A DNA stretch of 64,000 nucleotides from a bacterium (GTDB lineage Bacteria; Patescibacteriota; Minisyncoccia; Moranbacterales; UBA9337), in contig JAGGSH010000012.1 of NCBI GenBank assembly GCA_021159185.1, positions 1,235 through 65,234 on the forward strand. Direction: 5' to 3'. Below the pieces are notes generated by a model that did no database searches, had not been told where the DNA came from, and saw nothing but the letters and a program-made list of their open reading frames with translations. Shown here piece by piece: positions 3,220 through 34,420 of the stretch (its first letter is position 1; each line of letters opens with the position of its first letter). A program made the translations under genes and the position numbers.

Positions 3220-3273
3220 AGTTTTATTGTTTATTTAATTAGTTAATTAATTATTTACATTAAACTCCCTTAA

Positions 3274-3499
3274 TGTCATTCCGGAATTTTTTCCGGAACG
3301 CCTGCCTGCCGGCAGGCAGGAAGTGAAAGAAAAAATATTCGGAATCTAGGTTAATTAAATTTTTTTAAGCGTGAGATAACTGAAAGCGTAGATTCCGGAT
3401 ATTTTCCTTTGCTATCGCTACGGAAAATTCCGGAATGACAATAGGTTAAGATTCCGGATAAATTTTTCCGCTACTGCTTCAAAATTTTCCGGAATGACA
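3274..3499. repeat. Family A palindromic MITE-like element (copy A1: one full ~167-bp unit plus a partial second 3' half)
   Basis: Termini are TGTCATTCCGG...CCGGAATGACA. Internal palindrome is CCTGCCTGCCGGCAGGCAGG. About 85-90% identical to copy A2 at 51385-51549. Fills the rplJ-rplL spacer. Confidence 0.85.
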
Positions 3500-5159: not shown

Positions 5160-6005
5160 TTATTCTCCCTCAAACGCCGCTTTCAAATCTTCTCTGGCTT
5201 TTTCCATCGCGGTTTTAAAATCTTCAACGGCTTTCCGTATTGCTTGATTTTTAATCTCGGCTAATTCTCGCGCAGTTTCTCCCACTTTTTCAACTTTTTC
5301 CCTATTGGCTTTAAATTCTTCGCGCGCCGCCCTAAGATCTTCTCTGAAAGATTTCATTGTTTCTTTTGAATCGCTTTCTTCTTTGCAGGCAGATTTCACT
5401 TTTTCGGCTGCCGCTTTTTCGGCGTCTTTAAGTTCGGACACTAATTCATCAATGGAAGATTTTCTGCCGCTAATTATTTCTTTAACTCCTTGGCGGAAAG
5501 TTTGAACCGCCTCGTCAATAGCTTTTCTTCTTTTGGCCACCGCTATCTCAACGGCTTTCTGGAAATTTTCTACCGCTTCTTTCTGCTCGCTATTTTCCGC
5601 TTTTATTTCCAGTTTTTTATAATATTCATCTCTCGCTTCGTCTCTTCTGGCGCGGCGCTCCGCAATTCTAGCGTCTCTTTCATTGCGACGGTCCTCTAAA
5701 TTACTCGAATGATTCGCCCGCCAAGTTTCCAGCCTATTTTCGCGATTCGCGATTCGCTGTTCCACTTTGGATATTATTCCGGCAACGCGGGAACACATTT
5801 TCTCTTTCACTTTTTCCATATTTTCTTCTTTTTTCCCCTCAATATCCTCTTTGATTTTTTGTGATCTGGCTTCCTGGTTTTCTTTTATTTGTTCCGCATT
5901 TTTTCTAGCCGTAACAGCCCAATCTAGAAATGCTTCCGCCGAATAAATATTAACGGAAAACACCAGTCCAAGCACTGCGGTTAAAAATAAAATTTTGTTT
6001 TTCAT
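5160..6005 (-). CDS. secreted coiled-coil protein (signal peptide, then highly charged E/K/R-rich helical region)
   Basis: N-terminus MKNKILFLTAVLGLVFSVNIYSAEA looks like a signal peptide. The remainder is low-complexity charged heptad-like sequence. No family assignment possible. Confidence 0.55.
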   Translation of the reverse strand: MKNKILFLTAVLGLVFSVNIYSAEAFLDWAVTARKNAEQIKENQEARSQKIKEDIEGKKEENMEKVKEKMCSRVAGIISKVEQRIANRENRLETWRANHSSNLEDRRNERDARIAERRARRDEARDEYYKKLEIKAENSEQKEAVENFQKAVEIAVAKRRKAIDEAVQTFRQGVKEIISGRKSSIDELVSELKDAEKAAAEKVKSACKEESDSKETMKSFREDLRAAREEFKANREKVEKVGETARELAEIKNQAIRKAVEDFKTAMEKAREDLKAAFEGE

Positions 6006-6049
6006 ATTTTTAGTGAGTTAAAAAATTAATGAATTAATGCTCAAGACAT

Positions 6050-6146
6050 CCTCCCCTCCTCTTTGAGGAGGGGATTGAGGGGTGGTGTTGTTTTCGCTGG
6101 CGATATTCACACCCCCCAGCCCTCCCCTCAAAGAGGGGAGGGGGCA
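6050..6146. repeat. Family C palindromic element (copy C2)
   Basis: CCTCCCCTCCTCTTTGAGGAGGGGATTGAGGGGTGGTGT...ATTCACACCCC..CCCTCAAAGAGGGGAGGGGG. Near-identical termini to C1. Confidence 0.8.
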
Positions 6147-6148
6147 AT

Positions 6149-6460
6149 TTAAAGCAACTCCGCGTCATCAATTGATTCTAAATCTATATCCTCGTCAAAA
6201 TTATCCAAGCTTTCTAAATCGCTTTCAAAATCTTCAATATCTGCCTCAAAATCAGCGTCTGAATTTCCCATATCAATTTCAGGGACTGTTTCATTTTCCG
6301 GCAAAATCTTTTCTTCCGATAAACTAGGGTTTAAATTACCAGCCGGAGCTGAAATTTCCAATTCGTCGTTTTTTAAAAAGCTACTATTTATAATCAATAG
6401 GATACCGGCTATGATAATAAATACTCCGAAAAGTATCCACCCGTAATATTTTTTTGCCAT
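6149..6460 (-). CDS. small membrane-anchored acidic protein
   Basis: N-terminal TM helix WILFGVFIIIAGILLII followed by a D/E-rich tail. Its 3' end abuts repeat C2. Confidence 0.4.
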   Translation of the reverse strand: MAKKYYGWILFGVFIIIAGILLIINSSFLKNDELEISAPAGNLNPSLSEEKILPENETVPEIDMGNSDADFEADIEDFESDLESLDNFDEDIDLESIDDAELL

Positions 6461-6527
6461 ATATTTTTGTTTTTATTTGATTAACTTTGATTATTAAATT
6501 ATACAATATTATTTTGCAAATTACTAA

Positions 6528-8873
6528 TTATTTTTCTATTTTTCCATCCTGTCTTACTTGTTCAAGATTAACCGACAAAAGTTTTGACACGCCGTTTTCG
6601 CCCATTGTCACTCCGTAAAGCAATGAGGCTTGGCGCATTGTTTCGCGGTTATGAGTGATAATAATAAATTGGGTATTGCCGGACAATTCCCGCACGATGC
6701 GATTAAAGCGTTTGGCGTTGGACTCGTCCAGCGCCGCTTCCACTTCATCCAACGCCGCGAAAGGAGGCGGATTGAAAGAGATGATGGCAAAGAGAAGCGC
6801 GATAGATGTAAGCGACCGTTCCCCTCCGGAAAGCATCGCGAGGCTGGAGATTTTTTTCCCCGGCGGACAAGCTGAAATATCAATTCCGATTTCTTCTTTT
6901 TCCGACTGATTACTTTCGCCATTATCATTTTCTAATTCCGCTAAACTGTTTTCATCATTTTCCGCTTTTTCTTTTCCAATTCTCAATTCTTGGCTTTTGA
7001 CTTTTGACTTTTGACTTTTGACTTTTGACTTTGTCAGCTTCGCGTTTCCTCCTCCAAAAATCACGCGAAAGTATTTCGTGAATTCTTTGTTTATTCGCGC
7101 GAAGGCTGTTATAAAAACTTCGTTTATTTTTTTGTCCATTTCCTTCACTACCTCCTTGAGAGAATTTATCGCGTCTTCTAAGTCTTTTGATTCTTTAATT
7201 AGAAAATCAAAGCGGCTGTTCGTTTCCTGATATTCTTTTAGTACTATTGGATCGATTCCGCCTATCTGCTCCATCTGTATTTTAAGCCTTGTGATTTCTT
7301 TTCTTAAATCATCTTCGCTGACGGGCTGGCCGTCATACTTCAATTCGCTAACGCTAATTTTAAGCTCATCTCTAACTTCGCTAATTAAATCTTCCTCCTT
7401 AACTTCAACACGAGCCAGTTTTATTTTAGCCTCGTTAAATTGGTCTTTAAATCTATTCAGCTCATCTTGCTTGGCGCGCAATTGTCTCTCAACTTCAAAG
7501 AAATGCCGACGCGCCTTTTTATCTTCTTCAATCTCATCATTAATATTTTTATCCAATTTTTTCAGGTTTTCTTTCAGTAAGCTAATATTTTTAGCCGTTT
7601 TTTCTTGATTTTCTTGAAATTCTTTAATTCTTTTTTCCGTGTCTTTTTTCTCATCCGTTTCAACTAATGATTTTTCAACTTTTATTTCCCTCTTGCCTAC
7701 GGCTGAATAAAGCTTATGCAGATTTTGCTGGATGGCTCTGGCAAATTCTTTAATCTCTTGAAGCTCTTTCAAAGTTTCTATTTTTTCCAGTCTTTTAATT
7801 AATTTTTCCTGGCTGCGGCGAATTTGTTCCAAATTAGACTGGACATAATTCAAGTCAACCGGAATGCTTTGGATAATTTTTTGCTGGGATTGTTTTTCTT
7901 TCAATAATTCTATTCTTCCCTCTGTTATCACCAGTTCTTTTTCCAAATCATTAAGTTTTTGGCGCGTGTCGTTTCGTTTTCTTTCCAACTCTTCCTGCTT
8001 TTCCATCCCTCGCGTTTTTTTTGATTCGGCCTGCATTTCGTCATTAAGCTTGTCCGCTTCACGCTGAATATTTATGGCTTTTCTGCCCAGCTGTTCTTTT
8101 TCTTCATACGAACCGTCTTTTTCGGCCTGAAAAGCGTTCCAAAGATAAGAAAATAATTTCATCCGTTTTTCTTTAAGTTTTTGGGAAACTTCTTTTCCTT
8201 TTTTAGCTTTTTCCGCTTGCCGTTTGAGCATTTTAAGATGTGGTTCAATTTCATTGGCTAATTCTTTTACTCGCTCCAAATTTTTTTTGGTTGATTCAAT
8301 TTTTTTTAGCGCTCGCGCTTTTTTAATTTGGAATTGCTTGACGCCGGCCGCGTCTTCTAAGATTGTCCGCCGTTCACTAGGCGAAGCGTTTAAAACTTCG
8401 TCGGACATGCCTTGATTGATTACGCAGTAGCTTTTTTTTCCTATGCCCGCTTTGGCCAAAATGTCAACAATGTCAATCAATCGCGCGCGGCTTCCGTTAA
8501 TTAAATATTCGGATTCTCCGTTTCTAAAAAGCTTGCGGCTTATTGCCACTTCTGAAAAATCCAGCGGTATTTTTTTATCGGAATTGTCAAAATATAAAGT
8601 GGCCGAAGCGCAGCCTAAGCGCGCTTTTTCTCCCGATCCGGCAAAAATAATATCTTCCGATTTTTTTCCGCGCAGGCTTTTCATTGACTGTTCGCCCATC
8701 ACCCATTGGATAGCGTCGGCTATATTGGATTTCCCCGATCCATTGGGGCCGACAATCACGGTTATGCCGCAGTTTTTACTTCCATTATTAAGACTGCGCG
8801 CCGGCGAAAAATCCAGCGTGGTTTTTTTAGCAAAAGACTTAAATCCCGATAATTCTAATTTTCTCAAAAACAT
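6528..8873 (-). CDS. smc: SMC-family chromosome segregation ATPase, short form (~782 aa, no obvious hinge)
   Basis: N-terminal MFLRKLELSGFKSF...GPNGSGKSNIADAIQWVMGEQS (Walker A). C-terminal LSGGERSLTSIALLFAI...ALDEVEAALDE (signature and Walker B). The middle is continuous coiled coil with no recognisable hinge domain. The listed ORF (to 9014) adds 47 codons read through repeat copy A3. The true start is the ATG at 8873-8871. Confidence 0.8.
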   Translation of the reverse strand: MFLRKLELSGFKSFAKKTTLDFSPARSLNNGSKNCGITVIVGPNGSGKSNIADAIQWVMGEQSMKSLRGKKSEDIIFAGSGEKARLGCASATLYFDNSDKKIPLDFSEVAISRKLFRNGESEYLINGSRARLIDIVDILAKAGIGKKSYCVINQGMSDEVLNASPSERRTILEDAAGVKQFQIKKARALKKIESTKKNLERVKELANEIEPHLKMLKRQAEKAKKGKEVSQKLKEKRMKLFSYLWNAFQAEKDGSYEEKEQLGRKAINIQREADKLNDEMQAESKKTRGMEKQEELERKRNDTRQKLNDLEKELVITEGRIELLKEKQSQQKIIQSIPVDLNYVQSNLEQIRRSQEKLIKRLEKIETLKELQEIKEFARAIQQNLHKLYSAVGKREIKVEKSLVETDEKKDTEKRIKEFQENQEKTAKNISLLKENLKKLDKNINDEIEEDKKARRHFFEVERQLRAKQDELNRFKDQFNEAKIKLARVEVKEEDLISEVRDELKISVSELKYDGQPVSEDDLRKEITRLKIQMEQIGGIDPIVLKEYQETNSRFDFLIKESKDLEDAINSLKEVVKEMDKKINEVFITAFARINKEFTKYFRVIFGGGNAKLTKSKVKSQKSKVKSQELRIGKEKAENDENSLAELENDNGESNQSEKEEIGIDISACPPGKKISSLAMLSGGERSLTSIALLFAIISFNPPPFAALDEVEAALDESNAKRFNRIVRELSGNTQFIIITHNRETMRQASLLYGVTMGENGVSKLLSVNLEQVRQDGKIEK
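6993..7034. repeat. tandem 7-nt repeat (CTTTTGA)x5-6 inside smc
   Basis: Encodes KSKVKSQKSKVKSQ in the SMC C-terminal head (21-nt protein-level period). Confidence 0.8.
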
Positions 8874-8923: not shown

Positions 8924-9008
8924 TGTCATTCCCGCGTAGGCGGGAATCTAGGATGAAATCGCCAGTTTCAGAAATTACTCTAGATTCCCGATCAAGTCGG
9001 GAATGACA
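8924..9008. repeat. Family A palindromic element (copy A3, short cccg subtype)
   Basis: TGTCATTCCCGCGTAGGCGGGAAT....GATTCCCGATCAAGTCGGGAATGACA. The internal ~36-bp segment is the reverse complement of the one in A6 and A4. Confidence 0.85.
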
Positions 9009-9803: not shown

Positions 9804-10490
9804 TTACTTCCACCCTTTCGTTTCCAATCCCTTTTTAGCCGCTTCTCTTTGGGCGTCTTGTTTAGATATCCCTTTCCCTTCAGCAACCAATTCTTCGTCT
9901 AAATAAACTCCAACGATAAAGTGCTTATCATGATCCGGTCCCCATTCTTTTATCAATTTATAGCTGGGAGTAATTTTCTCATGCTCTTGCGCCATTTCTT
10001 GAAAATAGCTTTTGGAATCCATATATGATTTATCTTTCAATACCTTATCTAGATTAACAACTATATTTTTTAAAATAAATTTTTCCGCCGCGCCGTATCC
10101 TTGATCTAGATAAATGGCTCCGATGATAGCTTCCATAGCATTGGCCAAAAGATATTGCCTGGCGCGCCCAGTGTCCTTGGTTTCTCCTTTGCTCATTAAT
10201 AAATAATTATCCACATTTAAACCCTTGGCTACTTTCGCCAACATTTCGCCATTAACCAGCGCCGCCCGCCAGCTGGTAAGATCTCCTTCCGGATTGGGAT
10301 AATTTTTATACAAATAATCTGTCACCGCCAGTTCCAAAACCGCGTCCCCCAAATATTCCATTCTTTCATTATGGTTTAATTTATAACCGCGGTGTTCATT
10401 GAGATAAGAGCGGTGAGTCAAAGCTTCCTGTAAAAATTTTATATCGTTAAATTTTATTCCGATTTTTTTGGAAAAATTTTCAATAGGCAT
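9804..10490 (-). CDS. rnc: ribonuclease III
   Basis: RNase III signature HRSY...NERMEYLGDAVLELAVTDYLY and a C-terminal dsRBD (QEMAQE...GKGISKQDAQREAAKKGL). The likely start is M9 (MPIENFSKK). The listed ORF extends to 10514. Confidence 0.9.
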   Translation of the reverse strand: MPIENFSKKIGIKFNDIKFLQEALTHRSYLNEHRGYKLNHNERMEYLGDAVLELAVTDYLYKNYPNPEGDLTSWRAALVNGEMLAKVAKGLNVDNYLLMSKGETKDTGRARQYLLANAMEAIIGAIYLDQGYGAAEKFILKNIVVNLDKVLKDKSYMDSKSYFQEMAQEHEKITPSYKLIKEWGPDHDKHFIVGVYLDEELVAEGKGISKQDAQREAAKKGLETKGWK

Positions 10491-10504
10491 AGACACGCAA
10501 AACC

Positions 10505-10625
10505 TAAAATTCAAAGCTCAAATTTCAAATCAAGCACTAAATCTAAAATGCCAAATGGTTATTTTAATTTTTTAGATTTTGAGCTTGATTTGTTATTTTT
10601 ATTTTGAAATTTGGATTTTAAAAAT
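10505..10625. repeat. Family E AT-rich palindromic element (copy E1)
   Basis: Imperfect ~120-bp palindrome TTCAAAGCTCAAATTTCAAATCAAGC...GCTTGATTTG..TTGAAATTTGG. Its 5' half is highly similar to 57371-57412 (E2). Confidence 0.65.
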
Positions 10626-10643
10626 TTAAAAAAATTAACTGCT

Positions 10644-11316: not shown

Positions 11317-11475
11317 AAGTCGCAAATCTCAAAACATGCAACTCGAAACTCAAGAAAAAGAAAATTTTGAGTTATAAGTTTTGAGTTATAAGTTAAAATT
11401 TATAATATATCTCACTATCGCACAGCTTAGCACTAAATATGCTTCATAGCAAGAATGAAAATAAAAAATGCTAAC

Positions 11476-14791: not shown

Positions 14792-14882
14792 TGTCATTCC
14801 CGCCCCGCTAAGCGGGGGGATCCAGAGTGATTTCTGGAGTTAGTAATTTCATCCTGGATTCCCGATCAAGTCGGGAATGACA
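14792..14882. repeat. Family A palindromic element (copy A4)
   Basis: TGTCATTCCCGCCCCGCTAAGCGGGGGGATCCAGAG...CCTGGATTCCCGATCAAGTCGGGAATGACA. The 5' flank CTTCCATATGTCATTCCC is shared with A7. Confidence 0.85.
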
Positions 14883-14893: not shown

Positions 14894-15259
14894 TCATACA
14901 AATTCTATCATCGCCATTTTGGCGCTATCGCTTTCTCTGGCTTTCAATTTTATAATTCTTGTGTATCCGCTATTTCTTGTTTCAAATTTTTTTGAATAAT
15001 CCCCCGTTATTTTTTTAACCGCTTCCGCGGAAATTTTGCAACTTAAATTTCTTATCATCGCCACTTTATCAATTTTGCCATTTTTGTTTTTTTTAACCTC
15101 GCTGACAAGCTTATCTATCAATGGCTTTATTTCTTTCGCCTTAGCTTCAGTGGTAGTAATTTTTTCATTCATTATTAAACTTCCCAACAGCGTTTTTTTT
15201 AACGCTCTCCTTTGCTTTCTGACTCGGCTTAATTTTCGTCCCGCTTTTTTATGCTTCAT
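14894..15259 (-). CDS. rplQ: 50S ribosomal protein L17
   Basis: MKHKKAGRKLSRVRKQRRALKKTL...TTEAKAKEIKP...GYTRIIKL is canonical L17. Confidence 0.9.
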   Translation of the reverse strand: MKHKKAGRKLSRVRKQRRALKKTLLGSLIMNEKITTTEAKAKEIKPLIDKLVSEVKKNKNGKIDKVAMIRNLSCKISAEAVKKITGDYSKKFETRNSGYTRIIKLKARESDSAKMAMIEFV

Positions 15260-15269: not shown

Positions 15270-16247
15270 TTATTTGGAGCTTTTTAATATAAGCCCGAAA
15301 CTTCCAATGGCTTTTTTCATTTCTTTTACGCCTTTGCCACCCATTCCTTCCAGTCCGATTAATTCCTTTTCCGACAATTTAACTATATCACCCACTTTTG
15401 ATATTTTATTGGCGCTTAAAGTATTCAGCGTTCTAGTGGAAAGGACTTTAAGATCTTCTACCTTTATTTTTTTCGGGTCAGGTATTTCTTTTTGAGCCTT
15501 TTTTGGCTTCACCGCTTTCATTTCTCTTTCTTCACCTTTTTTATCCTTTTTCTTCTCCTCCGAAGAAAGTTCAAAAAGCGCGGAGAACTGGTCAACCAAA
15601 ATATGCGTCGCTTTTTTAAACGCCTCTTGAGGAGAAATACTTCCATCCGTAATAATTTCTAAAGTAACCCTGTTATAATCAGTTCTTTTGCCTACCCTCA
15701 TATTTTCTATAACATAGTTTACTCTCCTAATAGGCGTGTAAACAGCATCAATAGCTATCACTCCGACTTTTTTTTCTTTTCTTTCTTGCTGTTCCACCGG
15801 CACATAGCCCATTCCTCTGCTAATTTCCAAATCCATTTTAATTTCAGTATCTTTATCCGTGGCATTGGAAATAAGCTGGCTAGTATTCATTACTTCCACG
15901 CTGGAAGGACATTCAATCTCCTTAGCGGTAACCTTGCCTTCTCCTTTCCAATTCAAACTGGCTGTAACAGGCTCGTCTCCATGCATTTTAAGCCGCACTT
16001 TTTTTAAATTAAGTATGATTTGCACAACATCTTCCGGAACTCCTTCAATAGTGGAAAATTCATGCAGAACTCCTTTAATTTTAACCGAGGTAATGGCCGC
16101 GCCTTCCAAGGAAGACAATAATACCCGGCGAATAGCATTGCCTAAGGTAGCTCCATACCCGGGATGGCAGCCTTCTATTATAAATTTTCCGCTGTTTTTG
16201 CCTGTTGAGACAAATTTCGGTTTCTGGGGAAGTGACATAGCTTGCAT
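15270..16247 (-). CDS. rpoA: DNA-directed RNA polymerase subunit alpha
   Basis: GKFIIEGCHPGYGATLGNAIRRVLLSSLEGAAITSVKIKGVLHEFSTIEGV is the alpha NTD. A C-terminal alphaCTD helix-hairpin-helix is present. The start is probably M15 or M18 of the listed ORF (which begins at 16289). Confidence 0.9.
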   Translation of the reverse strand: MQAMSLPQKPKFVSTGKNSGKFIIEGCHPGYGATLGNAIRRVLLSSLEGAAITSVKIKGVLHEFSTIEGVPEDVVQIILNLKKVRLKMHGDEPVTASLNWKGEGKVTAKEIECPSSVEVMNTSQLISNATDKDTEIKMDLEISRGMGYVPVEQQERKEKKVGVIAIDAVYTPIRRVNYVIENMRVGKRTDYNRVTLEIITDGSISPQEAFKKATHILVDQFSALFELSSEEKKKDKKGEEREMKAVKPKKAQKEIPDPKKIKVEDLKVLSTRTLNTLSANKISKVGDIVKLSEKELIGLEGMGGKGVKEMKKAIGSFGLILKSSK

Positions 16248-16323
16248 AAAATTACTGGCGGTGAATTCCGCGCAGAATTTCTGCGCCAAACTGCCGCTAA
16301 GCTAAATATTTATTATAATTTTA

Positions 16324-16956
16324 TTATCTTGAATAATATTCAACCACTAATTGAGGATTAACTCCTACTTCGGTTTTTTCCATGGATGGGCTGGACAAAA
16401 CTTTTCCTTCCAGTTTTTTCGCGTCAAAGCTGATCCATGCGGGAAAATCTTTTTTATTTTTTAAAATCTGGGATCTGTTTTTAAAATAGTTTTTATTTTT
16501 TTTATTGCCTCTCACGGATATTAAATCGCTTGTTTTAATTTTACAAGAAGGAATATTTACCTTTCTTCCATTAACTTCAAAAACGCCATGCCCCACCAGC
16601 TGTCTGGCTAGCGCTCTGGAACTGGCGAAACCCATGCGATAAACTACATTATCCATTCTCATTTCCAATCTTTCCATTAAAAGATCGCCTGTCACTCCTT
16701 CTTTATTTTTAATTTCGTCAAAATGTTTTTTGAATTGTTTTTCCATTATTCCGTAAATCCTTTTGATTTTTTGTTTCATGGCAAGCTGTTTCCCATATTC
16801 ACTCAATCCCCGCCCAAAGTTCTTGCCATGCATTCCCGGCGGATAAGCTTTTTTTATCATAGCGCACTTAGGCGAATTACAACGATCACCTTTCAAAAAA
16901 AGTTTTTCTCCAGCCCTTCGGCATTTTCTGCATTTTGCTTTTGTATCTCTAGCCAT
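16324..16956 (-). CDS. rpsD: 30S ribosomal protein S4
   Basis: CRKCRRAGEKLFLKGDRC..PGMHG...LSEYGKQLAMKQKIKRIYGI is canonical S4. Confidence 0.92.
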   Translation of the reverse strand: MARDTKAKCRKCRRAGEKLFLKGDRCNSPKCAMIKKAYPPGMHGKNFGRGLSEYGKQLAMKQKIKRIYGIMEKQFKKHFDEIKNKEGVTGDLLMERLEMRMDNVVYRMGFASSRALARQLVGHGVFEVNGRKVNIPSCKIKTSDLISVRGNKKNKNYFKNRSQILKNKKDFPAWISFDAKKLEGKVLSSPSMEKTEVGVNPQLVVEYYSR

Positions 16957-16969: not shown

Positions 16970-17066
16970 ACTCGCCTCTTGTAGCTTGAAACTCAAGATA
17001 AGAAATTGATCAATTATTAAATCTTAATTCTTGGGTTATAAGTTGCGAGTTGCGAGTTTTGAGATT
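16970..17066. repeat. Family R intergenic ~96-bp element (copy R1, rpsM-rpsD spacer)
   Basis: CTCGCCTCTTGTAgCTTGAAACTCAAGATAAGAAATTGATCAATTATTAAATCTTAATTCTTGGGTTATAAGTTGCGAGTTGCGAGTTTTGAGATTA. Near-identical to 17471-17568. Palindromic termini ...ACTCGC / GCGAGTT. Confidence 0.85.
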
Positions 17067-17454
17067 ATGTTTTTTCCGACGCTGATCTTCTTCCGCTTCC
17101 CATCGTGCGCCGCACATTCCCCCTTACGGTTCTGGTGTTAGTCTTGGTTCTCTGCCCTCTTACCGGAAGGCCTTTTTGGTGCCTGATTCCCCGATAGCAT
17201 CCAATTTCTTTTAAACGCCTGATATTCATTTCAACACTATGTTTTAACTCTCCTTCTACGCTGTACTTTTTCTCTATTTCGTTTCTAAGGCTGTTAACTT
17301 CTTCAGCAGATAAATCTTTCGTTTTAGTATCTTTATTAATTTTAAGGCACTCCAAAATTTTTCCACTGCAAGGCTTGCCTATGCCATAAATATAAGTTAA
17401 CGCGATTTCTATTCTCTTGTTATCGGGAATATTAATCCCAGCTATTCTAACCAT
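17065..17454 (-). CDS. rpsM: 30S ribosomal protein S13
   Basis: [26 protein letters not shown]...[24 protein letters not shown] is canonical S13. Confidence 0.93.
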
Positions 17455-17470
17455 AATTCTTACAACTCAC

Positions 17471-17568
17471 GACTCGCCTCTTGTAACTTGAAACTCAAGA
17501 TAAGAAATTGATCAATTATTAAATCTTAATTCTTGGGTTATAAGTTGCGAGTTGCGAGTTTTGAGATT
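17471..17568. repeat. Family R intergenic ~96-bp element (copy R2, rpsK-rpsM spacer)
   Basis: Same sequence as R1 with 1-2 mismatches. A degenerate third copy lies at ~18150-18255 (rpmJ-rpsK spacer), and a related motif at 11340-11400 upstream of rpmF. Confidence 0.85.
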
Positions 17569-18148
17569 ACACTCGGCGCGGTTTGCGCGAACGGCATCCA
17601 TTATGAGGTATGGGGGTCATATCTCTAATCGCCAACAGCGTAAACCCGCCATTAGCTAAAGACCTGACGGACGACTCTCTTCCGCTTCCCACACCCTTAA
17701 TAAAAACTTCCAATTCACGGACATCAAATTTTTTCACTTTTTCAGCCACATCTCTGGCCACTTGAGTAGCGGCGTAAGGAGTGGATTTTTTAGCTCCTTT
17801 AAATCCTAGTAATCCCGCGCTAGACCAACCCAAAACGGCGCCGTTAAGATCAGAAATGGTTATCATTGTATTATTGTAAGTGCACTGAATATGCGCCTGC
17901 CCTTTCAGCACCTGCCGTTTTATTTTTTTCTTTTTTTTATTTTTGGCAACCGCTTCCGGTTTTTTCACTCCTCTCTTTTCTTCCATCTTTTTAGTTTTTG
18001 CGTCCTTTTTATTTTTTCCTTTTTTTTCCGGCACAGTTTTATTAGCAATAGATTTAGCAACAGATAATTTATCTATCTTTTGTTTATCTTCCGCATTTTT
18101 AGCGAGAGATTTTTTCTTTTTTTCAATTTTTTTATTTTCCTCTGCCAT
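17567..18148 (-). CDS. rpsK: 30S ribosomal protein S11 with ~75-aa K-rich N-terminal extension
   Basis: GQAHIQCTYNNTMITISDLNGAVLGWSSAG..GFKGAKKSTPYAA..GVGSGRESSVRSL..GGFTLLAIRDMTPIPHNGCR is canonical S11. Preceded by a lysine-rich low-complexity N-terminus. Confidence 0.9.
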   Translation of the reverse strand: MAEENKKIEKKKKSLAKNAEDKQKIDKLSVAKSIANKTVPEKKGKNKKDAKTKKMEEKRGVKKPEAVAKNKKKKKIKRQVLKGQAHIQCTYNNTMITISDLNGAVLGWSSAGLLGFKGAKKSTPYAATQVARDVAEKVKKFDVRELEVFIKGVGSGRESSVRSLANGGFTLLAIRDMTPIPHNGCRSRKPRRV

Positions 18149-18259
18149 ATTATTTTTAAACTCACAATTTATAATTTATCTTGTAACTTGCAGCTCAAGA
18201 AAGAAAAATTATAAATCTTAATTCTTAAGTTTCGAGTTACGCGTTACAAGTTACGTGTT

Positions 18260-18373
18260 TTACCCTTGTCTCTGTTTATGTCTCGGATTAGAACAAATCA
18301 CATAGAGTCTTCCTCTGCGCTTCACTATTTTGCACTTATCGCACATTTTTTTAACTGACGCTCTAACTTTCAT
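18260..18373 (-). CDS. rpmJ: 50S ribosomal protein L36
   Basis: Not in the ORF track (37 aa). The minus strand reads [37 protein letters not shown], canonical L36. Its ATG overlaps the infA TGA as ATGA. Confidence 0.9.
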
Positions 18374-18582
18374 AGCCTTTGAGTTATTCTTCCTTTAGTT
18401 AAATCATAAGGACTCATTTCCAATAAAACTTTATCCCCCGGCAATAATCGAATATAATTAACTCTCATTCTACCCGAAATGTGGGCTAAGATTTCATGGC
18501 CATTCTCCAGCTTAACTTTAAAAGTGGTGCTGGGCAATGTTTCCATAACTACGCCCTCAAGTTTTATTAATTCTTTTCCCAT
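18370..18582 (-). CDS. infA: translation initiation factor IF-1
   Basis: [64 protein letters not shown] is canonical IF-1. Confidence 0.93.
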
Positions 18583-21330: not shown

Positions 21331-21511
21331 ATTCGCGTTAAAATTTCAAATTCAAAATTCTAAATCTTAAATAATATCAAAACACAAAATCCAAATGTCT
21401 AAAACAGTTTTGAATTTGTAATTTTGGCAATTGAAATTTATTTGAGATTTGGCGCTTTGGATTTTGGATCTAATCCTTACTTCATAATACTTTATACTTT
21501 ATACTTAATAC

Positions 21512-22057
21512 ATGCTACTAATCATAGGTTTAGGCAATCCCGGAGAAGAATATAAAAAAACCAGGCACAATGCCGGGTTTATTATAATTGATGAACTGCG
21601 AAAAAAATGGAATCTCCCGGAATTCAAATTCAACAAAAAATTCAACGCCGAAGTTTCCAAAAAAAGTTGTGGGTTGTGGGTTATGGGTTGTGGGTTATTA
21701 TTAGTCAAGCCTCAATCTTTTATGAACCGCTCCGGTGAAGCTGTCCGTAAAATTATGGATTATTACAAATTAACTCCTAAAAATATCATTGTCATTCACG
21801 ATGATCTGGACATAGAAATCGGAAAATATAAAATCTCTGCCAATTCATCTTCCGCCGGACATAAAGGCGTCCAGTCTATCATTGACAATCTCGGAACGCA
21901 AAAATTTAAAAGAATCAGAATTGGCGTGGAAAAAGCCGGCGGAAGAAAAAACCGTGGAAAAATTTCAGGAAACGACTTTGTTTTGCAAGATTTTGAGGAA
22001 GAGGAAATTGAGAAAGTAAGAAAAATGGTGGGAGATATTAAAAAAGAAATAAAATAA
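21512..22057 (+). CDS. pth: peptidyl-tRNA hydrolase
   Basis: MLLIIGLGNPGEEYKKTRHNAGFIIIDEL...VKPQSFMNRSGEAV...IVIHDDLD is canonical Pth. Confidence 0.92.
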   Translation: MLLIIGLGNPGEEYKKTRHNAGFIIIDELRKKWNLPEFKFNKKFNAEVSKKSCGLWVMGCGLLLVKPQSFMNRSGEAVRKIMDYYKLTPKNIIVIHDDLDIEIGKYKISANSSSAGHKGVQSIIDNLGTQKFKRIRIGVEKAGGRKNRGKISGNDFVLQDFEEEEIEKVRKMVGDIKKEIK

Positions 22058-23479: not shown

Positions 23480-24556
23480 ATGAAATACTTGAACGCCTTG
23501 AATAAAATATCGGGAGTGGGATCGCAAAAAATCAGGAAGCTGATTGGCTTTTTTGGAAGCGCGGAAAAAGCTTGGAACGCCGGCTCCCGAGAGCTTGCCA
23601 AAAGTGGTATTGAGGAAAAAATAGTCGGAAATATTTTAGCCGAAAGAGAAAAAATTAATTCCGACGAGGAATGGGAAAGGATGATAAAAGAAGATATAGA
23701 AATGATCACTGCGGAAGATGAGAATTATCCGAAGTTGCTCAAAGAAATTCCCAATCCTCCCTACTCCTTATACATAAAAGGTGAAATGAATTTTAATTCC
23801 CGCCCGATGATTACCATAGTGGGATCGCGCAAGCTTACCAGCTACGGCAAGCAAGCCGCCCGCGGTTTGGCGCGCGATTTATCCCAGGCCGGGATTACGA
23901 TTGTCAGCGGAATGGCTTTGGGAATTGATGCCGCCGCCCATCGCGGAGCGCTGGACACTAAAGGAAAAACTATCGCCGTTTTGGGAAGCGGGCTGGATGA
24001 CAGAAATATCGGTCCGCAGACAAATTTCAATTTATCCAGAGAAATAATTTTTTCCGGAGCGCTGGTGAGCGATTACCCTGCGGGAACTCCGGCTCTCCCA
24101 GGTTCTTTCCCCGCCCGCAATCGCATAATGGCGGGGATGGCTTTGGGAACATTAGTCATTGAATCCGCCCAGGCCAGTGGCACGCTCATCACCGCCAATT
24201 TGGCCTTGGATTTTAATCGAGAAATTTTTGCCGTCCCTGGTTCAATTTTCTCCCCTGTTTCTGAAGGAACTAACCAGCTTATAAAATCAGGCGCTAAACC
24301 GGTTACTTGCGCCAAAGATATTTTGGAAGAATTAAATATTGAAAAAATAAAAGAAGCGGAGAAAATAAAAAAGATAATTCCGGATTCCCCGGAAGAAGAA
24401 AGGATCTTAAAAATTTTGTCCGGCGAGCCACTTCATATTGACAAGATAATTAAACTCTCTAAACTGAAAACCAGCGTTGCCAGTTCCACCATCGCCATTA
24501 TGGAAATGAAAGGAATGATAAAAAATATGGGCGGGCAGAACTATATGGTGATATAA
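23480..24556 (+). CDS. dprA: DNA processing protein DprA
   Basis: Rossmann-like DprA core VGSRK.T.YG....LA..L...G.TIVSG.A.GID..AH.GAL....TIAVLGSGLD ... FPARNRIM. C-terminal winged-helix-like tail. Confidence 0.9.
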   Translation: MKYLNALNKISGVGSQKIRKLIGFFGSAEKAWNAGSRELAKSGIEEKIVGNILAEREKINSDEEWERMIKEDIEMITAEDENYPKLLKEIPNPPYSLYIKGEMNFNSRPMITIVGSRKLTSYGKQAARGLARDLSQAGITIVSGMALGIDAAAHRGALDTKGKTIAVLGSGLDDRNIGPQTNFNLSREIIFSGALVSDYPAGTPALPGSFPARNRIMAGMALGTLVIESAQASGTLITANLALDFNREIFAVPGSIFSPVSEGTNQLIKSGAKPVTCAKDILEELNIEKIKEAEKIKKIIPDSPEEERILKILSGEPLHIDKIIKLSKLKTSVASSTIAIMEMKGMIKNMGGQNYMVI

Positions 24557-24576
24557 TTTCAAAATCTAAAATCCAA

Positions 24577-24957
24577 ATGCCAAATCAAACTCAAAATCCA
24601 AAAAACAAAAAATACGATCTTGAAGAAAGAACGGCTATTTTTGGAGAAAATACAATAAAGTTTGTAAAAACTTTGCAAAATAATAATATAAACAAACCAA
24701 TTATATCCCAGCTAATACGATCAGCAACTAGTGTGGGCGCTAATTACTGTGAGGCAGACGGAGCGGAGTCAAAAAAAGATTTTCAGCACAAAATTGCGCT
24801 TTGTAAAAAAGAAGGGAAGGAAACGAAATATTGGTTTCGGATGCTCTCCGTGGTAAATCCTGAACAAAAAGAAAAATGTAGAGAATTATGGAAAGAAACT
24901 CATGAGCTAGTTTTAATTTTTTCTAAGATAATAAACAACTCTAAAAAGAAAAAATAA
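24577..24957 (+). CDS. four-helix-bundle protein (23S rRNA intervening-sequence / Avd-like family)
   Basis: YDLEERT..F......QLIRSATSVGANYCEADGAESKKDFQHKIALCKKEGKETKYWFRML matches the conserved pattern of TIGR02436-type four-helix-bundle proteins. Confidence 0.7.
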   Translation: MPNQTQNPKNKKYDLEERTAIFGENTIKFVKTLQNNNINKPIISQLIRSATSVGANYCEADGAESKKDFQHKIALCKKEGKETKYWFRMLSVVNPEQKEKCRELWKETHELVLIFSKIINNSKKKK

Positions 24958-25072
24958 TTTTGGGTTTTATTATTTGGATTTGATTTGAAATTTGAATTTT
25001 GTAATTTAGGTTTAAAAATCTTAAAAACATCCTTTTACAATCTAAAAAATTACACGCTAATAAAAAACGATT

Positions 25073-27334
25073 ATGAACCTAGTAATAGTAGAGTCTCCCA
25101 CCAAAGCCAAGACTATTTCAAAATTTTTGGGCAAAGATTATGTCGTGAAATCTTCTTACGGACATGTTCGCGATCTGCCTAAAAATAAAATGGGTATTGA
25201 TATTAAAAATAATTTCAAGCCTGATTATGTTATTCCCGACAAAGCTAAGGAAAAAGTGGACGAGCTTAAAAAAATTTCCCAGAAATCCGACGAAATAATA
25301 TTAGCTACTGATGAAGACCGCGAAGGAGAAGCTATCGCTTGGCATCTTGTCTCTGCTTTAGAATTAAAAAAATTAAAATCAAAGAAAATTAAAAGGATAG
25401 TATTCCACGAAATAACTAAAAACGCTCTGGAAAAAGCGATGAAAAATACCAGAGAAGTTGACATTAATCTGGTCAACGCCCAGCAAGCCAGAAGAATTTT
25501 GGACCGGCTGGTTGGTTATGAATTGTCGCCGTTTCTTTGGAAAAAAATAAGACGCGGACTTTCAGCCGGAAGAGTCCAATCCATTGCTTTGCGTTTTATC
25601 GCAGAGCGCGAAAGGGAAATTGAAAAATTTAATAAAGAAGAATATTGGACAATCTCCGCTCAACTTAAAAAAGAAAATACAGAAGATAAAAATGGATTTG
25701 AAGCAGGTTTAATCAAGAAAAATGATAATAAAATAGAAGAAGTTATAACTTTAAAACTTTTTGCGGGAAATTATAAAACTAAAAAAACTATCATTGCCGA
25801 TAAGAAATCGGCTGATCATATCGCGACCGAATTAAAAAACGCTCGCTATAAAATTAAAGATATTGCCAAAAGGGAAATTAAACGAACACCGCCGCCACCG
25901 TTTACCACTTCCACTCTTCAACAAACGGCCATCAGCGCTTTGGGATTTTCTTCAAAGCAAACAATGATGATCGCCCAAAAATTATATGAGAAAGGTTTCA
26001 TCACTTATATGCGAACTGACAGCCTTAATATGTCAATGGAATCAATGCTGTCTGCCAAAAAAATAATCGGAAAATTATTCGGCGAAGAATACGCTTTGGA
26101 AAATCCAAGATTTTTTAAAACTAAATCCAAAGGGGCGCAGGAAGCTCACGAAGCCATCCGCCCTTCCCATCCTGAAAAAACTCCCGACGAGCTCAGAAAA
26201 TCACTGGATCCCAAACAATATAAATTATACAAACTTATCTGGAGCAGAATGATAGCTTGCCAAATGCAACCAGCTGTTTTAAATTCAGTCAAGGTGATTA
26301 TTGAAGCTACTCCTAAAAAATCAAAGAATAATTATTCACTTCAAGCTAACGGATCTACCGTAAAATTTGACGGATTTTTGAAAGTTTACGGCGCGAAATA
26401 TTCAGCCAAAGAAAAACTTTTACCGCTATTGGAAATAGATGAACTTTTGAAATTAATCAGTTTGAATCCCGAGCAGAAATTTACTTCTCCCCCGCCTCGC
26501 TACAGTGAAGCAGCATTAGTCAAGATTTTGGAAGAACACGGAATCGGCCGCCCTTCAACTTACGCGCCGACTATTTCCACTATCATTGAAAGAGAGTATG
26601 TGGAAAAAAATGAAGAGAGAAAACTTTATCCTTTGGAAATCGGGCTTTTGGTAAATGATTTGCTGGTTAAGCATTTTGCCGATATCGTCAATCCTGAATT
26701 TACCGCTGAAATGGAAAACGATATGGATAAAATAGCTGTTAAAAAAAGGGAGTGGACTTCCGTAATTGGAAATTTCTATAAACCTTTCCATGAAAATTTA
26801 GTAAAGAAAACTGAGAAAGTTAAAAAAGAAGACTTAGTTGAAAAAGTTGGGCGAAAATGCAAGAAGTGCGGAGGAGATTTAGTGGTAAAATTCGGCCGTT
26901 TCGGAAAATTTATCGCTTGTTCAAATTATCCCGAATGCAAATATACCGAAAAAAACGAAGCGGATAAAAAAATTGAGAAAGAAAATAAGGGAGTGAAATG
27001 CGAAAAATGCGGAGCCAATATGATTGTCAAATACGGAAAATTCGGCGCTTTTTTGGGATGTTCCAATTATCCCAAGTGCAAAAATATCCAAAGGATTGAA
27101 AACAAGATAGGAATAAAATGCCCCAAGTGCGGAAAGGGAGAAATAGTGGAAAAGAAAACAAAAAAAGGTAGAATTTTTTACGCTTGCAATCGCTGGCCCG
27201 AATGCGACTTCGCTCTCTGGCAAAAACCCACCGGAGAAAAATGCCCCCGCTGCCAGTCCCCCCTCGTTTTTGCCGCTAAAGGAAAAATCAAATGCTCCAA
27301 CAAAGAATGCGGGTTTGAGAAAAATATAAATTAA
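25073..27334 (+). CDS. topA: DNA topoisomerase I with C-terminal C4 zinc ribbons
   Basis: TOPRIM MNLVIVESPTKAKTI...SSYGHVRDLP, catalytic Tyr region (ITYMRTDS), and 3-4 CxxC...CxxC zinc-ribbon repeats at the C-terminus. Confidence 0.95.
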   Translation: MNLVIVESPTKAKTISKFLGKDYVVKSSYGHVRDLPKNKMGIDIKNNFKPDYVIPDKAKEKVDELKKISQKSDEIILATDEDREGEAIAWHLVSALELKKLKSKKIKRIVFHEITKNALEKAMKNTREVDINLVNAQQARRILDRLVGYELSPFLWKKIRRGLSAGRVQSIALRFIAEREREIEKFNKEEYWTISAQLKKENTEDKNGFEAGLIKKNDNKIEEVITLKLFAGNYKTKKTIIADKKSADHIATELKNARYKIKDIAKREIKRTPPPPFTTSTLQQTAISALGFSSKQTMMIAQKLYEKGFITYMRTDSLNMSMESMLSAKKIIGKLFGEEYALENPRFFKTKSKGAQEAHEAIRPSHPEKTPDELRKSLDPKQYKLYKLIWSRMIACQMQPAVLNSVKVIIEATPKKSKNNYSLQANGSTVKFDGFLKVYGAKYSAKEKLLPLLEIDELLKLISLNPEQKFTSPPPRYSEAALVKILEEHGIGRPSTYAPTISTIIEREYVEKNEERKLYPLEIGLLVNDLLVKHFADIVNPEFTAEMENDMDKIAVKKREWTSVIGNFYKPFHENLVKKTEKVKKEDLVEKVGRKCKKCGGDLVVKFGRFGKFIACSNYPECKYTEKNEADKKIEKENKGVKCEKCGANMIVKYGKFGAFLGCSNYPKCKNIQRIENKIGIKCPKCGKGEIVEKKTKKGRIFYACNRWPECDFALWQKPTGEKCPRCQSPLVFAAKGKIKCSNKECGFEKNIN

Positions 27335-29915: not shown

Positions 29916-30029
<114 letters not shown>

Positions 30030-30955: not shown

Positions 30956-33091
30956 TTATTTTTTAGATTTTTCTATGATACGCACAAAGCCCTCATTTGC
31001 ATTTACCTCAACCAAATCTCCGTCTTCCAAAACCTGCGTAGCATTTTTCGTACCAACTATGCATGGTTTTCTCAATTCGCGCGATACAATCGCTGCATGA
31101 CATATAATCCCACCCTCATCTGTGACAATTGCAGATGCTTTCTTGAGTAAGGGAATCATCTGGGGATTTGTCATGCCTGTCACCAACACATCGCCGTTCC
31201 TCACATTTGTTGTATTAGTCCATGATAAATGAGTTACAACACGACCTTTCGCAATACCAGAAAATGCGACATCGCCAATCACTTCGCTATTGTGTATTCT
31301 TTGCATCTTATCTTTCCAGTATGCGTATTGCTCGCCAGTATACAAATTCCATTCATTATTCTCTTTTACAAATACACTTCCTTTTAGTCTTTCTTTGAGT
31401 TCGTCGATGGTTATCGTTAGTTCTCCATGTAATGCTTTTTCAAATTCACTCACACGCATTGCCCCAACAATTTCCATAGGCAAATTGTGTTTTCTGGAAA
31501 CATATTTTAAGAAAATATCGTCCGTAAAAAATTTCTCTGAATCTCCATGGAGTCGCAATTTCATTTTTCCCATTTCAATAAGTCGTTCAACATATTTTTT
31601 AGTTTTAGCATCTGGTAATTTATCAAAAGAGTTATGTGTTAAAATTTCAATTAGTCTCTCTTTGGAAATTGTTTTCAGAATTTCTTGCTCTAATGCCTGT
31701 TGAAATGGCTGCTCGTAAAATCTGTATAGCTCACAAAATTTATCATTCAAAAGCATTGATTTTTTCCATTCCTCATTAAGATTTTTTTCATCCAAATGAT
31801 CTAGGCTGTAAAACTTCAAATCTTTATCTAATTTTTTTGACTCTACAAGAAATTTATGATAAAAATCATCATTTAAAAGCGAAGTGCTAATCTTATAACA
31901 TTCTTTTGCGCCTTTTGGAGATAAATATGCACGAGTAACGTCATTTTCATATAAAACAACATGATCAGCAGCACCATAAGTTTCGTTATTATTAAAAATC
32001 ATGTCTAAAAACAAAATACTGAACCCTGATACTGTAAAATGTAGTTCATAATCTTTTTCTGCATTCTCATTCTTTCTGGGTTTTGTAGTTTTGAGTGTCG
32101 TAATCGGCCTGCTTTGAACTATATAGAATTTCCCGTCAGCATAAGCCCATTCAATATCCTGCGGTTTTTTGTAGTGCTTTTCTATCCGCAAGCAAATTTC
32201 CGCTAGTTCAATAATTTGCTTTCCGGTTAATTTTTGTTTTTCTTGCTGGCTTTTTGCAACCGGAGCCCATCTTACGCCCTTCCGCAAGCATTTTGTAATC
32301 TGCTTTTTCTGTTCAGTTATGTTAATATCTATCATTGACCAATCGCGTTTATCAATAACATAAGCGTCCGGCGTGATTGATCCCGATACGATGGCTTCGC
32401 CTAGGCCCCAACCGGCTTCAATAATCATTTGATTTTTATCCTGCGTAACAGGATGAACCGTAAAAACAATGCCCGAAATTTCTGACGCGATCATTTCCTG
32501 AATAACAACCGCTACACTAACATTGGCCTTTAATAAATCTTTTTCACGGCGATAAAAAATCGCCCGCGAAGTGAATAGGGACGACCAGCATTTTTTTACA
32601 TTTTCCAATAACGTTTCTCTTGTGGTGTTTAAATAACTTTCCAGTTCTCCCGCCCAAGAGGCTACTTCGCTGTCTTCAGCGGTAGCACTGCTTCTAACAG
32701 CTGTAAAAAATTGTCCTTTTGGCTCCGCGGTTTTGAATTTTAATCTTTGAGTCTTAAGATTTAAAAACTCTGAAACTATTTCCTTCTCTAAATCTCTAGG
32801 CATTTTCGCGTCACAAATCAAATCCCGAATAACATTGGAAGCCCTGTCAACAGAATGCGTATCATTATAATTAATCTCATTAAGACGAGCTTCAATGTCT
32901 TGCGTCAAATCTGTCTCCTCAAGAAACCTGTCAAAAGCTTTGGCTAAAACAACAAATCCCGGCGGGACAGGAATTTTATTATTTACCATTTCGCCAAGCG
33001 AAGCGCCTTTGCCTCCGGCAGCCAGAATATCCTTTTTTGTAAGCTGTTTAAAACTTTTCGTAAACATAAAACTCTTAAAAATAATATTCAA
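30956..33091 (-). CDS. PEP-utilising enzyme family protein (PPDK_N ATP-grasp/pyruvate-phosphate-dikinase N-terminal domain + phosphohistidine swivel domain; PEP synthase / rifampicin-phosphotransferase-like architecture)
   Basis: N-terminus AAGGKGASLGEM...VPPGFVV..FDRFL and ...[22 protein letters not shown] (PPDK_N). C-terminus GDVLVTGMTNPQMIPLLKKASAIVTDEGGIICHAAIVSRELRKPCIVG (PEP-utilizers mobile domain with catalytic His). No C-terminal TIM-barrel domain. Confidence 0.8.
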   Translation of the reverse strand: MNIIFKSFMFTKSFKQLTKKDILAAGGKGASLGEMVNNKIPVPPGFVVLAKAFDRFLEETDLTQDIEARLNEINYNDTHSVDRASNVIRDLICDAKMPRDLEKEIVSEFLNLKTQRLKFKTAEPKGQFFTAVRSSATAEDSEVASWAGELESYLNTTRETLLENVKKCWSSLFTSRAIFYRREKDLLKANVSVAVVIQEMIASEISGIVFTVHPVTQDKNQMIIEAGWGLGEAIVSGSITPDAYVIDKRDWSMIDINITEQKKQITKCLRKGVRWAPVAKSQQEKQKLTGKQIIELAEICLRIEKHYKKPQDIEWAYADGKFYIVQSRPITTLKTTKPRKNENAEKDYELHFTVSGFSILFLDMIFNNNETYGAADHVVLYENDVTRAYLSPKGAKECYKISTSLLNDDFYHKFLVESKKLDKDLKFYSLDHLDEKNLNEEWKKSMLLNDKFCELYRFYEQPFQQALEQEILKTISKERLIEILTHNSFDKLPDAKTKKYVERLIEMGKMKLRLHGDSEKFFTDDIFLKYVSRKHNLPMEIVGAMRVSEFEKALHGELTITIDELKERLKGSVFVKENNEWNLYTGEQYAYWKDKMQRIHNSEVIGDVAFSGIAKGRVVTHLSWTNTTNVRNGDVLVTGMTNPQMIPLLKKASAIVTDEGGIICHAAIVSRELRKPCIVGTKNATQVLEDGDLVEVNANEGFVRIIEKSKK
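32098..32195. repeat. 98-bp perfect direct repeat, copy 2 (in-frame inside the CDS 30956..33091)
   Basis: Nucleotide-identical to 29921-30018. Encodes the conserved [20 protein letters not shown] motif. Confidence 0.9.
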
Positions 33092-33984: not shown

Positions 33985-34021
33985 AAGATTTGTAAGATTA
34001 GTTTAATTTAAAACTCTTTTT

Positions 34022-34149: not shown

Positions 34150-34420
34150 AAAGGTATACCGAATCCCAGTATCCCTTTCTATCGCCAGGCAATCCAGTCC
34201 GCCGCGGCGGACAGGATTGCCTGGCGGCGGGCAGGGATAAGAAATCGCGAATGCAATAATATAAACAGCTGACTTAAACGCTCTTGCGATCTGACTCTGG
34301 ATTCCAGACATTTTTTCTTCCACTTTCCGCCAAAGGCAGACAAACGTTACAGAAAAAATTCTGGAATGGCAAGTGGAAATAATTGGCAAAAATTGTAAAC
34401 AACGCTGGACGATCTAACAT

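Follow-up and report, generated by a model that had tools for sequence, protein, structure and literature searches.

The DNA analyzed here is a 64 kb stretch (the window) of a contig from a low-GC (38%) Candidatus Moranbacteria (Moraniibacteriota) bacterium of the candidate phyla radiation (CPR, Patescibacteria). It includes a ribosomal-protein operon whose spacers are filled by long palindromes with arms of tandem heptamers. On the transcribed, minus strand, the genes follow one another as infA (18370-18582), rpmJ (encoding L36; 18260-18373), rpsK (S11, with a Lys-rich N-terminal extension; 17567-18148), rpsM (S13; 17065-17454), rpsD (S4; 16324-16956, from the Pfam annotation of the same contig), rpoA (15270-16289), and rplQ (14894-15259). 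The original prediction, made from sequence, held that near-identical palindromic spacers separate three of these genes, that a degenerate copy lies beside rpmJ and a related motif upstream of rpmF, and that the repeated element might be an S4-binding operator or a miniature inverted-repeat transposable element (MITE).

Two of the spacers hold R1 (16970-17067, rpsM|rpsD junction) and R2 (17472-17569, rpsK|rpsM junction), both on the minus strand. They are two copies of one module, type A, an imperfect palindrome of ~100 nt with heptamer arms. R1 and R2 form a 98-nt direct repeat, identical at 97 of 98 positions and 502 nt apart, and both carry the inverted ACTCGC...GCGAGT arms that had been described. 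Counting from the rpsM stop codon, R1 begins 3 nt downstream; at the other end, 17 nt separate its strong helix from the rpsD start codon. The degenerate third copy was also found: R3 (18149-18259, minus strand), an A-like hairpin in the rpmJ|rpsK spacer, matches R1 and R2 in two blocks of 38-41 nt at 78-79% identity. So was the motif upstream of rpmF. R4 (11326-11405, minus strand), located between tRNA-Lys and rpmF and made of TAACTTA/TAACTCA units, matches a 41-nt block at 68% identity (11354-11394) and also folds as a hairpin. Structured palindromes of the same kind do occur at successive junctions of the operon, and relatives have spacers at these junctions as well. The naming of the junctions needs amendment, since the spacers are real but rpsK lies upstream of rpsM on the transcribed strand, such that R1 and R2 flank rpsM. 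As the identical arrangement of R1 and R2 is present in two independent metagenome assemblies, it is not an assembly artifact.

On the mRNA strand, every spacer has the same layout: the stop codon, a run of heptamers, an AT-rich core, and inverse heptamers. Each arm is a tandem run of heptamers: AACTNNN units follow the stop codon of the upstream gene, and their inverse, NNNAGTT, leads up to the start of the downstream gene; one 5′ arm reads AACTCGC AACTCGC AACTTAT AACCCAA and one inverse arm …GAGTT TCAAGCT ACAAGAGGCGAGTT. Between the inverse heptamers and the ATG are 10-25 nt that are A/U-rich and contain no Shine-Dalgarno motif. In every module, 0-9 nt separate the hairpin base from the stop codon, and 7-17 nt lie between it and the start codon; the modules keep one orientation throughout and exactly bridge the interval between a stop codon and the next start region. 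In the window, 20 sites match the arm pattern AACTNNNAACTNNNAAC, compared to 1.5 expected, and self-identity at a lag of 7 nt is 0.52-0.61 in three spacers, compared to 0.36 or less at any other lag. Together, the excess and the periodicity place this repeat structure far beyond chance. Tandem Repeats Finder detects period-7 arrays in all four elements: in the arms of R1 (17041-17058, minus strand; AGTTGCG x2.6 on the plus strand, equivalent to AACTCGC units on the mRNA strand) and R2 (17543-17560, minus strand), in R3 (18228-18259; AGTTACG x4.6), and in R4 (11365-11405).

Module variation between junctions and strains

Comparison with the closest relatives (loci L083-L091, from strains with 89-98% identical S13) indicates that type A is one of an interchangeable set of modules that, in a single Moranbacteria species group, occupies the intervals between stop and start codons across the infA-rpmJ-rpsK-rpsM-rpsD cluster. 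At least three modules, A (R1/R2), B, and C, are distributed, together with degenerate forms, over the rpmJ|rpsK, rpsK|rpsM, and rpsM|rpsD junctions. In that order, the window has degenerate A (R3), A, and A, and L091, with 98% identical proteins, has another sequence, B, and A. L084 through L090 all carry an A-type 5′ arm followed by B at rpsK|rpsM. At rpmJ|rpsK, these strains have either A (L084, L087, and L089; the junction is not covered in L085) or A with an internal deletion (L086, L088, and L090). At rpsM|rpsD, they have B (L084 and L085), C (L086), or A (L087-L090). In L083, where rpmJ|rpsK is not covered, rpsK|rpsM holds a B-like module and rpsM|rpsD a different B-like variant. R3 is orthologous to the intact A copies of L084, L087, and L089.

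The number of heptamers also varies between strains, with AACTCGC present 2-4 times, ACTCAAA 1-3 times, and CAACTTA 1-3 times; the window and L091 differ by one 7-nt indel. As judged from these alignments, modules are copied in their entirety from one junction to its neighbor, and arms differ between strains by the gain or loss of whole 7-nt units. A derived loop base unites R1 and R2, which read GATC where every other A copy reads GACC. Since GATC is unique to them and L091 carries B at the R2 site, R2 either arose or was homogenized with R1 after the split from L091. On this sequence evidence, their near-identity reflects recent gene conversion and not ancient duplication.

The A/B/C set is one local instance of heptamer hairpins that recur in other spacers of the window and in other Patescibacteria. 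A long heptamer-periodic hairpin of AAATYYC-type units occupies the nusB|rnc spacer (10491-10643, minus strand), and the architecture is therefore not confined to the ribosomal operon. Other long heptamer hairpins are in the co-directional spacers LytR|pth (21331-21470, plus strand), upstream of dprA, and at 57.4 kb (57374-57490, minus strand), and a single-arm array (49431-49487, minus strand; TATGGCT x8.1 on the plus strand) lies between atpF and atpH. In total, Tandem Repeats Finder reports more than 20 period-7 arrays in the window, and 7 is the commonest tandem-repeat period among 90 related loci. Heptamers containing AACT number 42 across all loci against 18 expected, an excess that is modest and confounded by the relatedness of the loci. 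Arrays also lie inside the open reading frames (ORFs) of essential genes: SMC (6990-7032), pth (21666-21696), and leuS (41862-41908 and 42305-42350). The array in pth encodes an inserted CGLWVMGCGL loop, and the sister strain L090 has a different, longer insertion at the same position. Heptamer arrays also bracket a gene of the 23S_rRNA_IVP family (PF05635; 24577-24957) between dprA and topA: in this region (24540-25080), mutually inverse A/C-rich and G/T-rich arrays stand on either side, like hairpin arms parted by the gene. PF05635 also includes the Avd accessory proteins of diversity-generating retroelements.

Same-orientation repeats common to several junctions are frequent in other Patescibacteria (for example, L035, with four copies, L036, L045, L057, and L060). 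Near-identical spacer pairs flank rpsM in L004 and L084 too, but their sequences are unrelated. A much larger version of the same-element-at-several-junctions pattern is seen in L057 (Kerfeldbacteria), in which a spacer element of ~260 nt occurs three times, at 87-94% identity, in and after the ribosomal-protein cluster (3202-3461, 6070-6330, and 6680-6938), alongside an additional 167-nt repeat pair (5908-6073 and 6935-7100).

The order of the genes that R1 and R2 flank has changed. S11 precedes S13 here, a swap relative to the canonical S13-S11-S4. The swapped order is found in the window and in L003, L004, L007, and L083-L091, which are its closest relatives only, whereas ~75 other Patescibacteria loci keep rpsM-rpsK-rpsD. 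Repeated spacers at three junctions would permit such a swap, either by duplication and deletion or by excision and reintegration. The N-terminal extension of S11 (coding sequence 17939-18148) comprises ~70 residues rich in Lys and Glu, and its coding sequence is full of short repeats that are T-rich on the plus strand.

Few stretches of bacterial genomes are as conserved as ribosomal-protein operons, and in this uncultured, ultra-small lineage their spacers are the most dynamic part, with modules swapped and units gained or lost. The paradox is that the module cores are conserved better than the ribosomal-protein genes themselves. When the window is compared with the L084-L090 lineage, copies of the A core and of the B core differ by 0-1 substitutions over 47-50 nt; the genes are 82-86% identical in nucleotide sequence, those flanking the element 82-84%, four-fold degenerate sites ~61%, and ordinary spacers ~50-70%. 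The peak of nucleotide identity coincides with the element. However, L083, which is closer to the window than L087, has diverged B-like modules. These modules and the decay of R3 indicate that module similarity does not follow host relatedness. This incongruence speaks more for modules that spread or were replaced recently than for simple purifying selection along vertical descent; at particular junctions, strong constraint could also contribute.

Within the window, type-A copies are confined to the rps cluster. A metagenome scan for the A core, which returned exact matches only and drew on an incomplete collection (a contig known from the Joint Genome Institute was not returned), yielded two contigs, both at the orthologous rpsM|rpsD junction. 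Scans of viral contigs for the A and B cores gave no matches. One explanation, which we consider improbable, is that heptamer-flanked hairpins are a class of recombination-mobile intergenic modules in CPR bacteria, swapped between junctions and between diverged lineages by way of their repeats, which would serve as handles, or of a strand-specific single-stranded intermediate. If this were true, it would explain the conservation of the cores against ~61% neutral identity, the host-incongruent distribution, and the one-sided antisense G·U pairing described below. It would also have driven the otherwise very rare rpsM/rpsK swap, meaning that repeats can reorder even the S13-S11-S4 block.

Folding of the two strands

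R1 is predicted to fold at -22.2 kcal/mol (z = -4.5) on the sense (mRNA) strand and at -42.9 kcal/mol (z = -8.4) on the opposite, plus strand, where it forms an almost unbroken helix of ~42 bp. The fold of R3 is weak (z = -1.9). Summed over 12 type-A copies, pairs on the plus strand are Watson-Crick at 261 positions and G·U at 74, with 10 mismatches; read in the same register, the sense strand shows 4 G·U pairs and 80 mismatches, most of them A·C. Both the helix register and the consensus structure were predicted on the antisense alignment, which inflates this contrast in favor of the plus strand. The wobble pairs are located in both arms, and most variation between copies exchanges Watson-Crick for G·U pairs on the plus strand. 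Modules B and C have the same antisense-favoring bias, and it is weaker in other co-directional spacers of the window. No general bias in stability exists across the phylum: of the Patescibacteria spacers compared, 106 are more stable on the antisense strand and 133 on the sense strand, which is also the strand favored by some families in other genomes. When the four-copy family of L035 was tested for covariation, its consensus fold broke into local hairpins.

The asymmetry fits selection of either of two kinds: one that favors pairing of the antisense strand, whether as RNA or as single-stranded DNA, or one that weakens the sense hairpin, since A·C is the most destabilizing transition product. 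A mutational bias linked to replication or transcription was also considered and set aside. The observed asymmetry runs opposite to what cytosine deamination on the non-template or leading strand would produce, and the bias in other spacers tends to track gene orientation and not a fixed DNA strand; this argument is indirect.

Could the functional form reside on the plus strand, antisense to the genes? An antisense RNA hairpin or a single-stranded DNA hairpin might act as a one-way block to antisense transcription or as a strand-specific recombination site of the attC or repetitive extragenic palindromic (REP) kind. The far stronger plus-strand fold, the wobble pairs in both arms, their recurrence in B and C, and the exchange of modules between junctions as units all speak for such a form, and a recombination site would explain the cassette-like exchange and the S11/S13 swap. 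Nonetheless, we find this quite doubtful. No promoter-like site for antisense transcription is nearby, and a U-tract follows the plus-strand hairpin only at junctions whose upstream gene happens to have Lys codons at its end. The bias is also not general in Patescibacteria, and part of the contrast reflects the alignment from which the structure was derived. Nor do the modules conform to the recombination sites in question. Like integron attC sites (60-140 nt), they are imperfect hairpins between co-oriented genes that fold better on one strand and have a species-specific sequence, they are more homogeneous than the genes they separate, and an adjacent gene, rpsM, has changed position. Unlike attC sites, they separate core ribosomal genes and not cassettes. 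In addition, their terminal heptamers TCGCAAC, GTTACAA, and GTTGTCA do not fit the R-box consensus RYYYAAC/GTTRRRY by inspection, and the annotated window contains no gene for a tyrosine recombinase or integron integrase. As for REP sequences, short hairpins with a conserved tetranucleotide head, and their associated tyrosine transposases (RAYT), the modules are ~100 nt long without a conserved head motif, and the window has no Y1_Tnp domain and no Y1 transposase gene.

Known elements and a possible function

In E. coli, the alpha-operon leader is an S4-binding translational operator, and the modules might be its repeated analog, placed before each cistron and bound by S4 or another ribosomal protein. 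R2 is just upstream of rpsM and R1 just upstream of rpsD, so that structured RNA adjoins both starts, as does the S4-binding pseudoknot of Alpha_RBS (RF00140), and several lineages share a strongly conserved module A at rpsM|rpsD. Rfam searches of the window at gathering thresholds returned only tRNAs. The Alpha_RBS match at the rpsM start (17422-17526, minus strand) scores 20.6 bits against a gathering score of 38, and it owes its alignment mainly to conserved codons at the beginning of rpsM. For R1, the predicted fold has no pseudoknot that takes in the start codon, and the strong helix stops 17 nt short of it. There is also no conserved leader at the rpsM start: L091 has B, and at greater distance the spacers of relatives are unrelated. 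Before rpsD, L083, L084, and L086 have B, C, or a B-like module in place of A, and before rpsM, L091 has B. As B and C are unrelated to A and occupy the same junctions in sister strains, A cannot be a required operator. Moreover, related heptamer hairpins are found at non-ribosomal junctions. This part of the original prediction is essentially refuted, and we regard an S4 operator as highly improbable.

At permissive Rfam E-values, the spacers match plant pre-miRNA families, and do so better on the plus strand; these matches mean only that the spacers are generic long hairpins. Promoter-like sites are at the level of shuffled sequence (9 found, 9.8 expected), with none in R1 or R2, and terminator-like sites, which are absent from all three spacers, show no excess over shuffled sequence. 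A promoter for each gene was rejected: the AT-rich loops of B, C, and R3 contain strings that resemble TATAAT, but no -35 element matches them, and some modules lack them.

The suggestion that a MITE colonized the operon was partly right, in that the module is mobile and more conserved than the flanking genes. A classical MITE is not supported, however. The terminal inverted repeats ACTCGC...GCGAGT are present and the whole element is palindromic, features that any hairpin has trivially. No target-site duplication is evident by eye in the flanks of R1 (…CATAATCTC / TACAAGAAC…) or R2 (…GTGTAATCTC / CGTGAGTTG…), and neither dispersed copies nor a transposase gene was found in the annotated 64 kb. 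An rve-type transposase just beyond the left edge of the window has no link to the element.

A separate repeat family in the window looks more like a true MITE or REP-type element than R1 and R2 do. Its four copies of ~100 nt, all in the same orientation (8931-9008, 14805-14882, 34071-34148, and 50464-50541), end in the inverted repeats TGTCATTCCCG…CGGGAATGACA and enclose a GGGAATCCAGG…CTGGATTCCC hairpin; one copy is between rplQ and rplM and one is inside the atp operon.

A broader form of the idea is that the modules are selfish or neutral repeats, by-products of heptanucleotide slippage and inverted duplication that recombination spreads in the manner of MITE, REP, or enterobacterial repetitive intergenic consensus (ERIC) sequences. 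They would do nothing for the host, and selection would merely blunt the sense structure. This is possible, though we think it unlikely. Unit numbers vary and modules turn over between strains with 98% identical proteins, heptamer arrays invade the coding regions of SMC, Pth, and LeuRS, and long spacers are missing in many relatives. Host-incongruent distribution combined with conservation far above that of neutral sites is as expected of young mobile DNA, and the A·C mismatches on the sense strand fit selection that weakens a tolerated structure. On the other side, besides the lack, within the 64 kb, of visible target-site duplications, dispersed copies, and a transposase gene, the metagenome matches are both at the orthologous junction, viral contigs have none, and a module always fills the exact stop-to-start span in one orientation.

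Several known repeats resemble the modules more closely, cyanobacterial and Beggiatoaceae heptamers in makeup and location and certain families of intergenic palindromes in behavior. With tandem 7-nt units whose number is polymorphic between close strains, the modules have the features of heptanucleotide simple-sequence repeats of the long simple-sequence repeat (LSSR) and short tandemly repeated repetitive (STRR) type. In cyanobacteria, STRR heptamers form a hairpin between hupS and hupL that has been proposed to stabilize the transcript or couple translation (PMC2670836). Our modules likewise consist of intergenic 7-nt tandem units able to form a hairpin between co-transcribed genes, with the same roles proposed in both cases. 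They differ from STRR in their host (CPR/Patescibacteria), in having units such as AACTCGC, AACTTAT, and CAACTNA that do not match the canonical cyanobacterial STRR units, in the two inverse arrays that surround a conserved AT-rich core of ~50 nt to make discrete, junction-swapped modules, and in the strong strand asymmetry of wobble pairing.

Direct repeats of the heptamer TAACTGA have been described in marine Beggiatoaceae, Cyanobacteria, and Bacteroidetes (MacGregor 2015, PMC4679880). As in our operon, these heptamer arrays lie in ribosomal-protein operons just upstream of starts without Shine-Dalgarno sequences, including that of rpsD, and the units are similar (TAACTCA and TAACTTA here). 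However, the TAACTGA repeats share one invariant heptamer in direct orientation, apart from one indirect repeat that was reported, whereas here many variants and an inverse arm give a hairpin. TIGR (tandem interspaced guide RNA) arrays, which are CPR-associated, have 36-nt units with box C/D-like motifs and stand beside a Tas (Nop-domain) gene (PMC12045711). We rejected them as a match, as the period here is 7 and not 36 and no Tas gene is a neighbor.

REP sequences and the bacterial interspersed mosaic elements (BIME) they compose, ERIC sequences (also called intergenic repeat units, IRU), and the Correia elements of Neisseria are, like our modules, imperfect palindromes of ~100 nt between genes of the same operon, with strain-dependent presence and better conservation than their surroundings. 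Correia and ERIC elements are substrates of RNase III or RNase E that alter mRNA stability. In contrast to these families, we see in the 64 kb no high copy number, target-site duplication, or mobilizing enzyme; simple-sequence repeats make up the arms, and local gene conversion seems to account for the spread. We found no prior description of heptamer-hairpin modules in Patescibacteria in the searchable literature.

The explanation we favor, with about even confidence, is that the modules are co-transcribed intercistronic stem-loops that arose from simple-sequence repeats, spread by recombination, and act as intercistronic punctuation, a function we infer. Shared heptamer flanks would provide the homology by which homologous recombination copies modules, and periodic arms would keep the hairpin foldable in shifted registers despite slippage. 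The modules are probably co-transcribed within the operon; no promoter or terminator signal was found. In the mRNA, a moderately stable stem-loop could draw the upstream stop codon near the A/U-rich start of the next gene, which lacks a Shine-Dalgarno sequence. Such punctuation might determine mRNA processing or stability (RNase III is encoded in the window by rnc, 9804-10514), serve as a structure-mediated translational coupler, or both; as the hairpin base sits close to both codons, 0-9 nt past the stop and 7-17 nt ahead of the start, these are our best functional guess. The A·C mismatches of the sense strand may keep the stem weak enough for read-through.

Several observations weigh against punctuation by an mRNA stem-loop. 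The strand asymmetry (74 G·U pairs on the plus strand and 4 on the sense strand) is opposite to that expected for selected sense-RNA structure. Many relatives have short, hairpin-free spacers, which argues that the structure is dispensable. The intrusion of heptamer arrays into coding regions fits a mutational by-product, and R3 is decaying. Given the divergent modules of L083, conservation of A and B may reflect recent horizontal spread and not functional constraint. Finally, co-transcription, folding in vivo, cleavage, and coupling are all inferred.

If the modules do act on mRNA, they are candidates for the punctuation or coupling of cistrons without Shine-Dalgarno sequences in CPR bacteria. 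For annotation, such spacers should not be labeled by default as S4 leaders, miRNA-like hairpins, or MITEs.

Other repeats and genes in the window

The window contains other repeats. A 102-nt sequence is found at 3264-3365 and 51375-51476 (87% identical); its first bases are TGTCATTCC, and a GC-rich palindrome, GCCTGCCTGCCGGCAGGCAGG, lies within it. At 39872-39935 is a related tandem array, in which the 28-nt unit GTAGTTTGCCTGCCTGTCCGGTAGGCAG is repeated 2.3 times.

On the minus strand, parB and parA lie beside tRNA-Leu (33088-35206). These genes are usually near the replication origin. Since gene orientation does not flip there, the origin is probably outside the window. The SMC gene is called at 781 residues, corresponding to the N-terminal domain, and is followed by separate ORFs of 103 and 281 residues without a Pfam match (5160-8873); the gene may be split or interrupted.

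An exact 99-nt direct repeat (29920-30018 and 32097-32195) encodes, on the minus strand, the end of a PPDK_N domain, which binds phosphoenolpyruvate (PEP) and pyruvate. One copy is inside the gene for a 711-residue PEP-utilizing enzyme and the other precedes a 255-residue ORF with only the PEP-utilizers mobile domain, suggesting a partial gene duplication or a split gene.

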